Below, piece after piece: positions 15,345-57,338 of a stretch of DNA of 64,000 bases (its first letter is position 1; every line of letters starts with the position of its first letter). Position numbers and translations under genes: made by a program. The notes beneath the pieces are model-generated. The model was given only the letters and a program-made list of their open reading frames with translations, did no database searches and had not been told where the DNA came from. This DNA is from Eledone cirrhosa (lineage: Eukaryota): assembly GCA_964016885.1 (NCBI GenBank), contig OZ024750.1, positions 44,764,001 through 44,828,000 of the forward strand, in the 5' to 3' direction.

Positions 15345-15751
15345 TATCAATGATATTAAATAAATGGAAACTATATTTATGAAACCATATTTATTTTATT
15401 ATATATATTTCAAGGGTACCAACATTTTGGTACGCTCTCATCAGATAAAATACAAAATTTGTTTTATAAATGGTGAACCTAGACCTTATCCAAACTGAAC
15501 CTGAACAGATATGGTCTGTTTTCTTGGGTATGTCACCATTTATAAAACAAATTTTGTATTTTATCTGATGAGAGCGTACCAAAATGTTGGTACCTTTGAA
15601 ATATATATAATAATATAAATATAGTTTTATAAATATAGTTTCCGTTTTTTTAATATCATTGATATTATGCTCCAGAAAAAACTGTAGAGTGCTTCGTATT
15701 TGTTATGAATATATCTGTTGAATTAACAACAAATTAAATATCCCTTTGCTT
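15345..15751. mobile_element. Head-to-head palindromic hammerhead element (family B) in (TA)n
   Basis: Inverted arms ~15345-15480 and ~15530-15664. Hammerheads at 15392-15452(-) and 15557-15617(+): tattttat-CTGATGA-gagc gtaccaa aatg ttggtac cctt-GAAA-tatata-TA-ataaaata. The longer right arm carries GAGTGCTT. Confidence 0.85.
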
Positions 15752-32787: not shown

Positions 32788-32869
32788 TATATATATATAT
32801 ACGTATATATATATATTAGTATTGGTGCCGCTCTGAAATATGAAATAACGATGTATACATCAACGATGT

Positions 32870-33210
32870 ATACATGAATGTATGTATAGTATATTTAGCA
32901 ATATATGGCATGCTTAATGAAAAACATTTAGAAGACCATTCGCTATGAATTTTCAAGTAGTGAAGTGACTTGATGTCACTTACTTATTCTCGGCAAATAA
33001 CAAGAGAGAGTGATCGACAGTCTGTTTCTCGCTTGTGAGCGTCTATGAAGACCACACACTCCGCTGCCTTTGCCGAGAATTATAGAAGCTGAATTCTTAG
33101 CCGAAAATAAGTGACATTGTCACTACTTTAAAACGCGTAACGAATGAACTTCTAAATGTTTTTAATAAAACATACAGTATATTGCTAAATATACTATACA
33201 TACATTCATA
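32870..33210. repeat. Diverged long inverted repeat in (TA)n
   Basis: atgaatgtatgtatagtatatttagcaatata.. / ..tatattgctaaatatactatacatacattcat, with arms of ~120 bp. Confidence 0.75.
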
Positions 33211-51642: not shown

Positions 51643-51685
<43 letters not shown>

Positions 51686-51838
51686 ATAAATGCTCTGAAA
51701 TAGCGATATATATGTGAATATAGACATAGAATATTCGAAAATATTCTGTATGTTTATAATAAACATTTTGAAGACCTAATCGCTATAGAATAGAATACGT
51801 CACGTATTACAATTAGATTCTCGATAAAAGCAAGGGAA

Positions 51839-51881
51839 GTAATCTACGCGTTTCATTCTCGTTAGAAATCATCAGGACTAC
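51839..51881 (-). ncRNA. Type I hammerhead ribozyme in the inverted leading unit
   Basis: Exact reverse complement of the array hammerhead (gtaatctacgcgtttcattctcgttagaaatcatcaggactac). Confidence 0.85.
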
Positions 51882-52266
51882 ATATCCAGTGCTTTTATCG
51901 AGAATGACACAGCTAGAGACTTATAGAATACTTAGCTGTGTACAGGAACTGGTTTGAAAGAGCGGTTGCCGGTCCGGCAGAAATTAGAAATTGGAATAAA
52001 TGCTCTGAAATAGCGATATATATGTGAATATAGACATAGAATATTCGATCTATAGCGATTAGGTCTTCAAAATGTTTATTATAAACATACAGAATATTTT
52101 CGAATATTCTATGTCTATATTCACATATATATCGCTATTTCAGAGCATTTATTCCAATTTCTAATTTCTGCCGGACCGGCAACCGCTCTTTCAAACCAGT
52201 TCCTGTACACAGCTAAGTATTCTATAAGTCTCTAGCTGTGTCATTCTCGATAAAAGCACTGGATAT

Positions 52267-52309
52267 GTAGTCCTGATGATTTCTAACGAGAATGAAACGC
52301 GTAGATTAC
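52267..52309 (+). ncRNA. Type I hammerhead ribozyme (first of 10 plus-strand copies, every 310 bp)
   Basis: GTAGTC-CTGATGA-T TTCT AACG AGAA T-GAAA-CGCG-TA-GATTAC. Stem I is GTAGTC/GATTAC, stem II is TTCT/AGAA, and stem III is the palindrome ACGCGT. The GUA triplet predicts a cut after 52303. Stem I is extended by GGA/TCC and ATTCTCGATAAAAGCA/TGCTTTTATCGAGAAT. Confidence 0.85.
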
Positions 52310-55219
52310 TTCCCTTGCTTTTATCGAGAATCTAATTGTAATACGTGACGTATTCTATTCTATAGCGATTAGGTCTTCAAAATGTTTATTATAAACATAC
52401 AGAATATTTTCGAATATTCTATGTCTATATTCACATATATATCGCTATTTCAGAGCATTTATTCCAATTTCTAATTTCTGCCGGACCGGCAACCGCTCTT
52501 TCAAACCAGTTCCTGTACACAGCTAAGTATTCTATAAGTCTCTAGCTGTGTCATTCTCGATAAAAGCACTGGATATGTAGTCCTGATGATTTCTAACGAG
52601 AATGAAACGCGTAGATTACTTCCCTTGCTTTTATCGAGAATCTAATTGTAATACGTGACGTATTCTATTCTATAGCGATTAGGTCTTCAAAATGTTTATT
52701 ATAAACATACAGAATATTTTCGAATATTCTATGTCTATATTCACATATATATCGCTATTTCAGAGCATTTATTCCAATTTCTAATTTCTGCCGGACCGGC
52801 AACCGCTCTTTCAAACCAGTTCCTGTACACAGCTAAGTATTCTATAAGTCTCTAGCTGTGTCATTCTCGATAAAAGCACTGGATATGTAGTCCTGATGAT
52901 TTCTAACGAGAATGAAACGCGTAGATTACTTCCCTTGCTTTTATCGAGAATCTAATTGTAATACGTGACGTATTCTATTCTATAGCGATTAGGTCTTCAA
53001 AATGTTTATTATAAACATACAGAATATTTTCGAATATTCTATGTCTATATTCACATATATATCGCTATTTCAGAGCATTTATTCCAATTTCTAATTTCTG
53101 CCGGACCGGCAACCGCTCTTTCAAACCAGTTCCTGTACACAGCTAAGTATTCTATAAGTCTCTAGCTGTGTCATTCTCGATAAAAGCACTGGATATGTAG
53201 TCCTGATGATTTCTAACGAGAATGAAACGCGTAGATTACTTCCCTTGCTTTTATCGAGAATCTAATTGTAATACGTGACGTATTCTATTCTATAGCGATT
53301 AGGTCTTCAAAATGTTTATTATAAACATACAGAATATTTTCGAATATTCTATGTCTATATTCACATATATATCGCTATTTCAGAGCATTTATTCCAATTT
53401 CTAATTTCTGCCGGACCGGCAACCGCTCTTTCAAACCAGTTCCTGTACACAGCTAAGTATTCTATAAGTCTCTAGCTGTGTCATTCTCGATAAAAGCACT
53501 GGATATGTAGTCCTGATGATTTCTAACGAGAATGAAACGCGTAGATTACTTCCCTTGCTTTTATCGAGAATCTAATTGTAATACGTGACGTATTCTATTC
53601 TATAGCGATTAGGTCTTCAAAATGTTTATTATAAACATACAGAATATTTTCGAATATTCTATGTCTATATTCACATATATATCGCTATTTCAGAGCATTT
53701 ATTCCAATTTCTAATTTCTGCCGGACCGGCAACCGCTCTTTCAAACCAGTTCCTGTACACAGCTAAGTATTCTATAAGTCTCTAGCTGTGTCATTCTCGA
53801 TAAAAGCACTGGATATGTAGTCCTGATGATTTCTAACGAGAATGAAACGCGTAGATTACTTCCCTTGCTTTTATCGAGAATCTAATTGTAATACGTGACG
53901 TATTCTATTCTATAGCGATTAGGTCTTCAAAATGTTTATTATAAACATACAGAATATTTTCGAATATTCTATGTCTATATTCACATATATATCGCTATTT
54001 CAGAGCATTTATTCCAATTTCTAATTTCTGCCGGACCGGCAACCGCTCTTTCAAACCAGTTCCTGTACACAGCTAAGTATTCTATAAGTCTCTAGCTGTG
54101 TCATTCTCGATAAAAGCACTGGATATGTAGTCCTGATGATTTCTAACGAGAATGAAACGCGTAGATTACTTCCCTTGCTTTTATCGAGAATCTAATTGTA
54201 ATACGTGACGTATTCTATTCTATAGCGATTAGGTCTTCAAAATGTTTATTATAAACATACAGAATATTTTCGAATATTCTATGTCTATATTCACATATAT
54301 ATCGCTATTTCAGAGCATTTATTCCAATTTCTAATTTCTGCCGGACCGGCAACCGCTCTTTCAAACCAGTTCCTGTACACAGCTAAGTATTCTATAAGTC
54401 TCTAGCTGTGTCATTCTCGATAAAAGCACTGGATATGTAGTCCTGATGATTTCTAACGAGAATGAAACGCGTAGATTACTTCCCTTGCTTTTATCGAGAA
54501 TCTAATTGTAATACGTGACGTATTCTATTCTATAGCGATTAGGTCTTCAAAATGTTTATTATAAACATACAGAATATTTTCGAATATTCTATGTCTATAT
54601 TCACATATATATCGCTATTTCAGAGCATTTATTCCAATTTCTAATTTCTGCCGGACCGGCAACCGCTCTTTCAAACCAGTTCCTGTACACAGCTAAGTAT
54701 TCTATAAGTCTCTAGCTGTGTCATTCTCGATAAAAGCACTGGATATGTAGTCCTGATGATTTCTAACGAGAATGAAACGCGTAGATTACTTCCCTTGCTT
54801 TTATCGAGAATCTAATTGTAATACGTGACGTATTCTATTCTATAGCGATTAGGTCTTCAAAATGTTTATTATAAACATACAGAATATTTTCGAATATTCT
54901 ATGTCTATATTCACATATATATCGCTATTTCAGAGCATTTATTCCAATTTCTAATTTCTGCCGGACCGGCAACCGCTCTTTCAAACCAGTTCCTGTACAC
55001 AGCTAAGTATTCTATAAGTCTCTAGCTGTGTCATTCTCGATAAAAGCACTGGATATGTAGTCCTGATGATTTCTAACGAGAATGAAACGCGTAGATTACT
55101 TCCCTTGCTTTTATCGAGAATCTAATTGTAATACGTGACGTATTCTATTCTATAGCGATTAGGTCTTCAAAATGTTTATTATAAACATACAGAATATTTT
55201 CGAATATTCTATGTCTATA

Positions 55220-55280
<61 letters not shown>

Positions 55281-55482
55281 GTAAACGGTAAGCAGAAATA
55301 ACACAATCGGTACAGTATGTGGAAGGTATATATTAGGTTAACGCTTGATATAGCAGGAAGAGGGTCTTAACGTTTCGGACGCTAGTCTTTCATCAGAAGA
55401 AAGAATGAGAAATGAAATAGATTGAGGGAACGGGCGGGTTGGAATTGGAAAAAATGATATATATATATATATATATATATAT

Positions 55483-55928
55483 AAATGACATTAATTAACG
55501 GAAACTATATTTGTAAAACCATATTTATTCTATTATATATATTTCAAGGGTACCAAAACTTTGGTACGCTCTCATCAGATAAAATACAAAATGTGTTTTA
55601 TAAATAGTGACATAACCAGGAATCAGACATTAACGGTGCAGGTTCAGTTTGGATAGTGAGAGGAGAGAAGAACCTGAACCCTTAAGGTCTGAATCCTGGT
55701 TATGTCACTATTTATAAAACAAATTTTGTATTTTATCTGATGAGAGCGTACCAAAGTTTTGGTACCCTTGAAATATATATAATAGAATAAATATGTTTTT
55801 ATAAATATAGTTTCCATTTATTTAATATCATTGAATATTATTCTCCAGAAAACTTGTCGAGTGCTCTGAATCAGTTATTAACATTTATATTTGTTGAATT
55901 ACCAACAAATTAAATATCTCTTTACTTA
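55483..55928. mobile_element. Palindromic hammerhead element, family B
   Basis: HHRs at 55526-55586(-) and 55729-55789(+). Closely similar to 15345-15751, including GAGTGCTC in the long arm. Confidence 0.85.
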
Positions 55929-55933
55929 TATAT

Positions 55934-56570
55934 GCAAAGTTTTATTTAAATTATTGGGTTACAACGAGTAAATATTTATAACTGATATAAAAGCACTCAA
56001 CAAGTATTTGGAGTATATTTACGATATTAAATAAATGGAAACTATATTTATAAAACCATATTTATTTCATTATATATATTTCAGGGATATCATATTAAAA
56101 ATATGTTATGCCTTCCTCAGACAAAATACAATATAAACAGTCTTATAAATAGATAGATTTGACATACCTTACAACTTCAACTTCCATTTAAAAAGTTGAT
56201 TTGGTAGTGAAAAATTTTAGGGACAGTTATCTATCTCTCTCTGTTTCTTTACATGAATTTCTTCTCTCTATCTATCTCTCTATATCTATCTCTCTCTGTT
56301 TAGTTGCATGCATTTCTTCTTTTTCTTCGCTTTTTTTCCTTTCTTTCTTTTTATAACTGTCCCTAACATTTTTCACTACCAAATCAACTTTTTAAATGGA
56401 AGTTGAAGTTGTAAGGTATGTCAAATCTATCTATTTATAAGACTGTTTATATTGTATTTTGTCTGAAGAAGGTATACCATATTTTTAATATGATATCCCT
56501 GAAATATATATAATGAAATAAATATGGTTTTATAAATATAGTTTCCATTTATTTAATATCTTTACTTATA
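55934..56570. mobile_element. Palindromic hammerhead element, family B variant
   Basis: Arms ~56023-56230 and ~56353-56560. HHRs at 56063-56128(-, CTGAGGA) and 56455-56520(+, CTGAAGA) with a catatt ttt aatatg stem II. Confidence 0.8.
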
Positions 56571-56793: not shown

Positions 56794-57338
56794 ATATATA
56801 TATATATATATGGACAAGGAAAACTGACATGCATGTTTGACTGCTGTTCTCCCATAAACACTCCATTCCAGTCTTGTGACTCGTTTGAGAACATTCAAGG
56901 TACAACACCGTGGACATTCGGGACCGAACGGCGTTTACGATATGCCTTCTGTACAGTTTATTATAATAAATTAAAATACATTACCCTACTTTGAGCTGTT
57001 TTATGCCCCCCCACCCAATTCTTTGCAGTTTTTCTTATTTAAAAACGAAATTTTTAACACACACACTCAAGAGGTGTCAACATGAATGGATCTGTTATTT
57101 TTATCTAAATACATATTTTCCAATTACAACCCGCCCGTCCCCTCAATCTATCTTATTTCTCAATATTTCTCCTGATGAAGGTCTAGCGTCCGAAACGTTA
57201 AGACCCTCTTCCTGCTATATCAAGCGTTAACCTAATATATCCATTCCATATACTGTACCGATTGTGTTGTTATTTCCGTTTACCTTTTACACACACACAC
57301 ACACACTCACACACTCACACACACACACAGACACACAA

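Follow-up and report, generated by a model that had tools for sequence, protein, structure and literature searches.

How does a short non-coding repeat come to be written many times over, in two opposed orientations, into a single microsatellite? This question is raised by a locus in a 64,000-nucleotide stretch of Eledone cirrhosa DNA (assembly GCA_964016885.1, contig OZ024750.1, positions 44,764,001 to 44,828,000, forward strand; referred to below as the window), where copies of a 310-bp unit, each carrying a hammerhead ribozyme motif, are found inside a (TA)n tract. The locus touches upon two issues that are open in the accessible literature, i.e., whether animal retrozymes are mobilized from circular RNA by proteins of Penelope-like elements (PLEs) and how PLEs generate inverted copies and a one-sided tail. 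We consider it probable that the locus is a young, non-autonomous hammerhead retroelement, for which a Penelope-type reverse transcriptase (RT)-endonuclease (EN) copied a small RNA, probably a 310-nucleotide circle, from both cut ends of the (TA)n target.

The longer, forward arm of the insertion is composed of 10.24 units that show exact identity at a lag of 310 bp, with 0 mismatches, as described in an earlier note on this DNA. It meets, at a blunt junction, a 369-bp arm (1.19 units) whose sequence is exactly the reverse complement of the unit. (TA)n is found at both flanks, also as reported (coordinates, given as window positions, are listed in Table 1; unit positions are counted from the first base 3' of the predicted ribozyme cut, i.e., position 1 = 52304). 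The earlier description of the short arm as an inverted head holds as far as the inverted exact copy is concerned, but this "head" is the second arm of the insertion. The unit (GC 34.5%) is non-coding with a longest stop-free run of 59 codons, in agreement with the lack of an open reading frame (ORF) noted before. The RT plus GIY-YIG ORF that defines an autonomous PLE is thus absent from the unit, and a search of the window for PLE protein gave no match.

The arrangement of the arms was compared across two samples of the family. Set 1 comprised the window and 50 regions of a contig denoted C1 (10 chosen by motif and 40 from end lists, a choice biased toward pairs), and set 2 comprised 40 regions chosen by the end at unit position 165 alone, which held 41 insertions. 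In set 1, 42 insertions are two-armed and 9 are single-armed, truncated or gapped. Set 2 contains 35 two-armed insertions, the remaining six being one that extends past the region edge, two wrong-side fetches, one with a second arm reduced to a 21-nucleotide stub and two that are single-armed. All 77 two-armed loci among the 92 insertions examined are head-to-head, with one outer end at unit positions 127-139 (S) and the other at 163-170 (T), the modes being 130 and 165; the pairing of S with T holds in 42/42 cases in set 1 and in 35/35 in set 2. Each end type is found on the left or on the right, and the S arm is the longer in 37/77 loci. Outer ends adjoin (TA)n in 167 of 172 cases, and the duplicated empty site at one locus (L038) is plain (TA)n. 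Neither fixed end coincides with the ribozyme cut site. The inner ends are scattered over the whole unit (chi-square p 0.36), and the arms are joined with microhomology (41 junctions), bluntly (9) or with filler or a gap (27), where the fillers are often pieces of the unit. The mean insertion size is about 10 units (0.8-28.5). The locus had previously been regarded as a lone single-pass product; these data replace that view with two separately started arms and with one insertion out of about 1,400-1,500. One locus harbors, between its arms, a 272-nucleotide GC-rich foreign segment (L055:1699-1970) with no Rfam match at E<=5, which is possibly a captured RNA or a later insertion.

Hallmarks of PLE insertions are an inverted copy truncated at its 5' end, a tail of 30-40 bp on one side only and a bias toward (TA)n (PMC8557442; here and below, statements on cited work refer to the accessible parts of each publication), and all three are found in this family. 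The resemblance is to the EN-containing (EN+) clades Neptune, Naiad and Poseidon, and extends from the inverted truncated copy, the one-sided tail (PMC8557442) and the (TA)n bias to two internal RT start sites and a dimer-type hammerhead (PMC8557442; PMC11167929; PMC4209133). Purified anole PLE protein nicks and extends both target strands, is modeled as a dimer, and starts reverse transcription inside the RNA at two sites, which delimit the tail (PMC11167929). Unlike EN+ PLEs, the family lacks an ORF and the whole element is the repeat, copied many times. Furthermore, the accessible part of the anole study found no strand difference in start site and does not report one site per strand (PMC11167929), whereas the two sites are paired in 77/77 loci here. 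An RT-GIY-YIG family of the same genome, used as a control, ends in (TA)n at two positions 54-61 nucleotides apart in 28/30 loci (one of the 28 matches being fuzzy), and the four control loci that show two ends carry one of each. The segment between S and T, i.e., the tail, contains an (AT)4 run at unit positions 132-139 and a 14-15-nucleotide word that is invariant in the aligned older sister units. Because these older sisters retain the word and end in the same register, it is a likely protein (RT) binding site. The Penelope-type mobilization suggested earlier is accordingly supported by the S/T end rule, the tail and the (TA)n bias.

Head-to-head insertions are also formed by twin priming of L1, where a single RNA is primed from the two target strands and the complementary DNAs (cDNAs) are joined with microhomology. 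In L1 the position of the second start varies, each of the two pieces corresponds to a different part of the RNA, and the insertion has a poly(A) end. The present family shares with L1 the priming of two strands on one RNA and the head-to-head joining with microhomology, but its two starts are fixed, at a distance of about 35 nucleotides, and the same unit is copied over and over in each arm. An origin at the DNA level would mean either that single-unit insertions grew through unequal crossing-over or amplification of DNA circles, or that the DNA of the first arm served as template for the second. Block duplications seen in the longest arrays (L051, L054, L055) would be expected from such a process, the S end coincides with the (AT)4 run, which could anneal to the target, and local amplification has been proposed as a model of satellite birth (10.64898/2026.07.22.740005). 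Nevertheless, we regard a DNA-level origin as very unlikely, since both arms are multimeric and uniform across the inversion at a very low rate of single-copy change (see below), either arm may be the longer, and the outer ends are both fixed while the inner junctions vary over the whole unit.

The size of the family was estimated from pattern searches, because a DNA search of the genome with the unit returned nothing, common words being skipped. The 43-nucleotide ribozyme motif has 4,033 exact matches, and the two end patterns have 769 and 692 forward-strand matches, which corresponds to the number of loci given above (reverse-strand counts were inflated by multiple matches, and the forward counts were used). 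There are 1,024 exact ends at unit position 165 and about 12,500 units genome-wide. Single-copy changes amount to 86 in 238 kb (0.036%), from which it follows that the family is very young, consistent with the very recent origin claimed before. It is a dispersed multi-copy family that coexists with PLEs (RT plus GIY-YIG frames) in this genome. Older sister subfamilies with units of about 314-320 bp have 5,372 genome matches (L081-L110); their identity to the unit is about 72-74% over positions 59-175 and 44-50% over the ribozyme region, where they nevertheless keep the hammerhead core (C3-G8 or U3-A8) and the outer helix. Tail word and end register are common to the sisters and the unit, and the hammerheads differ; the U3-A8 core is found in 9/19 listed sister copies, most of them with a longer palindromic stem III. 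One older sister insertion, 73-78% similar to the unit and likewise head-to-head, is located in the window itself (32815-33210); its left end is of the long type and its right end of the short type, and each lies at (TA)n.

Palindromic tandem arrays are difficult to assemble, and an assembly or library artefact originating from fold-back chimeric reads has to be considered. In a public sequencing run (X5) that contains unique window sequence of the host at a depth of about 5, the summed depth of the unit is very high and the two common variants, at positions 287 and 295, occur again. This read depth argues against an assembly artefact for the family, but not for the unit count of this locus. 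Given also the unequal arm lengths, the two fixed end positions in 77/77 loci and the locus-specific haplotypes, an artefact is extremely improbable. The unit was found in 20 runs with 18 organism labels; a spread across many organisms was rejected as unsupported. In two of these runs, labeled as other organisms (X1 and X10), the unit is accompanied by further host repeats at low depth, and it is absent from raw Hi-C reads with the same label as X1 (X23), a pattern that probably reflects contamination or mixed samples. The majority haplotype of the unit differs between X1 and X10. Closed contigs of 340 nucleotides can come from arrays as well as from circles, and no RNA run was listed among the public runs holding the unit, which has no bearing on expression.

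The ribozyme of the unit displays the core CUGAUGA..GAAA..GUA and a stem I of 6 bp (one G.U), extended by the perfect 16-bp helix that had been pointed out before; a Type I descriptor matches the unit and 0/20,000 dinucleotide shuffles. The claim of a complete Type I hammerhead in each unit was correct regarding the core and the position of stem I, but not regarding completeness. The motif is incomplete as a monomer because its 4-bp stem II rests on a U.U opposition and because the palindrome of 6 nucleotides that forms stem III (2 bp, 2-nucleotide loop) has a pairing probability of 0 in the isolated motif. In a homoduplex, this palindrome has a predicted energy of -7.5 kcal/mol, and the unconstrained minimum free energy (MFE) fold predicted for two consecutive units is identical to that of a forced double hammerhead with the palindromes paired. 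The ribozyme is thus predicted to act as a dimer rather than as a monomer, a design that would allow cutting in multimers and leave a stable monomeric circle; the circular unit has an MFE of -67.8 kcal/mol (z -4.8 relative to 150 shuffles), i.e., the predicted circle is highly self-paired. Salamander and PLE hammerheads of the same palindromic design cleave as dimers (PMC7229834; PMC4209133). The number of hammerheads at the locus is 11 rather than ten, because the inverted arm carries one more. The Rfam search proposed in the earlier note yielded nothing at gathering level: no hammerhead match at E<=1 over 7 kb and, on a 106-nucleotide motif, only HH9 (15.8 bits, E 0.11), below the gathering threshold of 52. 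A scan with consensus patterns for the Pol III boxes and the octamer gave only loose matches.

What was the template? Among the 77 two-armed loci there are 29 haplotypes, with a chance match of 0.13, and 74/77 loci display a single haplotype across both arms. Of 30 locus-wide variants, 16 are private to one locus yet present in all of its units, which implies a bottleneck of one unit followed by repeated copying. A circular monomer would provide such a bottleneck. It could also be provided by cut linear monomers if the RT jumped from end to end repeatedly to form a concatemer; retroelement RTs are capable of template jumping, and uniform loci as well as selection on the ribozyme would result here too. 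However, only 3/154 inner ends are found within 5 nucleotides of the predicted cut (about 5 expected by chance), and 761 cut-site crossings contain two substitutions and no indel at positions 307-1. Because cut-site ends are not enriched and the crossings lack indels, both run-off from linear monomers and jumping between them are disfavored, and we assign the latter a slim chance.

The pattern of variation is one of selection on RNA. Within the ribozyme and the outer helix, 12/12 locus-wide changes are compatible with the structure (N7, loop II, G.U swaps and U.U to A-U) as compared to 3/18 single-copy changes (Fisher p 1e-5); for the new variants of set 2 alone the counts are 3/3 and 3/10 (p 0.07). 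A recurrent 1-nucleotide insertion in stem I, which appears to pair still, with a bulge, was excluded from these counts. Locus-wide changes show an excess of A>G (9, with 4 T>C) relative to singletons (5 and 15, respectively; p 0.03). ADAR editing is not claimed, because selection for G.U-compatible changes explains the A>G excess as well.

A number of observations weigh against copying of a lone circle by a Penelope-type enzyme. Arm lengths correlate weakly (rho 0.25, p 0.03). Because "locus-wide" was defined on pooled arms, the both-arm count of 134/134 is partly circular, and short arms in which the variable sites are missing carry no information. At one locus (L208) each arm begins with two units of one haplotype followed by another, in the same order (X,X,Y..) from the outer end and in register, which points to one heterogeneous template or to conversion between the arms; at L079 both arms share a variant present in the first pass only, and four more loci (L067, L080, L217 and L054) are either mixed or shifted out of register. 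At L208 and L079 both arms started in the same unit of one molecule. These six loci are compatible with a template that was linear or multimeric, or with conversion from arm to arm; a lone monomer circle without later gene conversion does not yield mosaic loci. Furthermore, hammerhead cleavage of the anole PLE is dispensable in vitro, where uncut RNA is the main substrate (PMC11167929), 8/9 Xenopus retrozyme dimers did not cleave in vitro (10.64898/2026.07.22.740005), and no partner PLE was found among the about nine families obtained from fetched loci.

Several of these points would be accommodated if, under the same Penelope-type two-end priming, the usual template were the linear transcript of a parent array, long and uncut, with circles as a by-product or an occasional bottleneck. 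The mosaic loci L208, L079, L067, L080 and L217, the precedent of the anole substrate and the weak stem II of the monomer all agree with such a template, and run-off ends at the cut site are equally expected to be absent. On the other hand, the 16 private variants that fill whole loci would still require a one-unit bottleneck, and the ribozyme retained by selection would be expected to cut such templates. In addition, if all templates were linear and in register, the observed rate would lead to about 27 inherited single-unit variants shared in register in 74.8 kb of overlapping arms, of which one clear case is seen; this expectation assumes that singletons are inherited mutations and is too high if they are mostly RT or assembly errors. 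We therefore consider linear transcripts unlikely as the usual template. The claim that the locus is a rolling-circle reverse-transcription product is retained in that copying round a monomer is the most likely route, and qualified in that a pure monomer circle does not account for three to six of the 77 loci.

With a circular monomer as the main template, the element may be formed as follows. The array would be transcribed, and adjacent units would pair via the palindromic stem III to form the double hammerhead of the fold prediction, which would cut after GUA and release 310-nucleotide monomers. By analogy with the axolotl and mussel work, a host ligase would close the monomer, and the circle, without a partner palindrome, should be stable. 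A PLE protein, probably a dimer, would bind near unit positions 140-154 and nick both (TA)n strands, one of which would prime at about 165 and the other at about 130-139, the positions at which the ends are found. Each cDNA would circle the template for 0.2-27 units, and the two 3' ends would be joined via the short microhomology or filler seen at the junctions. A minority of insertions probably originate from uncut linear multimers, and some long arrays were enlarged later by DNA duplication. A more far-reaching interpretation, for which we see even chances, is that an enzyme dimer holds one circular ribozyme RNA at two sites about 35 nucleotides apart and performs rolling-circle copying into both target strands simultaneously. 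The family would then constitute direct genomic evidence that animal retrozymes move as circles and offer a general rule for the inverted copy and tail of PLEs, with a dimer-only ribozyme that sets a monomer-circle bottleneck under purifying selection.

The retrozyme kind itself is already known; the two-armed form with its strict two-end pairing is not described in the accessible sources. Metazoan retrozymes without long terminal repeats (non-LTR) have been described in coral, mussel and axolotl (Rtz331/Rtz353) (PMC7229834; 10.64898/2026.07.22.740005). As in these, the family has a tandem non-coding unit of 170-400 bp with GC <45% and a Type I hammerhead per unit, a self-paired predicted circle and PLEs in the same genome, and the earlier assignment to a retrozyme-type family is supported. 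Two axolotl features are united in its ribozyme, the palindromic helix III of Amex1 and the U.U at the helix II base of Amex2. In contrast to metazoan retrozymes, which in the accessible sources are described as tandem arrays only, the family displays head-to-head arms, fixed paired ends and (TA)n targeting; expression and cleavage have been shown for the published elements, whereas the present family is known from DNA sequence and predicted folds. Their mobilization by PLEs from circles was proposed, not shown (PMC7229834). A literature search that excluded subscription papers and the supplement of PMC7229834 found neither a two-armed insertion of a metazoan retrozyme nor a cephalopod retrozyme. 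The value of the family is chiefly that the two proposed mechanisms become exact, testable predictions. It supplies more than a thousand natural products that are nearly identical, obey a strict end rule and carry haplotype markers, and it predicts start sites (unit positions 130-139 and 165), a (TA)n target and a 310-nucleotide substrate suited to the existing in vitro PLE assay. If the interpretation is correct, a natural pairing of enzyme and RNA by which a small circle is written in tandem into a microsatellite would also be a new route to satellite DNA.

The partner PLE was sought with an EN protein as query and with Pfam GIY-YIG, in 24 regions with long frames and in 20 additional sister loci, a search that covered a small part of 10,595 GIY-YIG candidates. 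In this material no PLE carries the conserved word of the unit in its own 3' end, none of the about nine families from fetched loci includes a coding element with a matching terminal repeat, and the accessible supplement of PMC8557442 has no match to three unit words. Three candidates (L106, L126, L142) were rejected as PLE-sister neighbors, and a fourth (L049) because its PLE lies across a gap. The families recovered carry a C-terminal GIY-YIG domain (e.g., L171:2218-5991, L175, L176:1988-4519, L177:1775-5062 and L188), with open frames of up to 1,257 codons; one family has 35,408 first-look candidates, and L188 is a head-to-head coding pair with ends that differ by about 60 nucleotides. One coding PLE family (L190, L191, L165) harbors a hammerhead of the same design as the unit, i.e., with U.U at the base of a 4-bp stem II, a 6-nucleotide palindrome and a GUA cut, and has no DNA similarity to the unit by blastn.

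Table 1. Components of the two-armed insertion, in window positions
Feature	Positions	Strand
Left (TA)n target remnant	51647..51679	no strand
Inverted arm, 1.19 units; outer (RNA 3') end 51680 is the long T end, unit position 165	51680..52048	-
Hammerhead motif in the inverted arm; cut predicted after 51845, minus strand	51839..51881	-
Blunt junction at which the arms meet head-to-head, unit positions 107 and 56	52048..52049	no strand
Forward arm, 10.24 identical 310-bp units; outer end 55223 is the short S end, unit position 130	52049..55223	+
16-bp helix around the ribozyme, 52243-52258 with 52316-52331; every 310 bp	52243..52331	+
Type I hammerhead motif; predicted cut after 52303; ten copies at +310k	52267..52309	+
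Tail between the two fixed start sites, unit positions 130-165; every 310 bp	52433..52468	+
Right (TA)n target remnant	55224..55268	no strand

Further material of this kind is found next to the locus, elsewhere in the window and at other loci of the genome. An older Penelope-type remnant on the minus strand has its 3' end next to the right (TA)n remnant. Other hammerhead repeat families (L064, L083, L106, L036, L192, L049) include a period of about 467 bp as well as short fold-backs, and have other palindromes. Within the window, fold-back pairs that are 91-98% complementary are found at 55297-55456 with 57112-57271, 55493-55822, 56023-56560 and 15444-15565. These are probably head-to-head remnants of other Penelope-type families, and all of them except 56023-56560 contain hammerhead-like cores.
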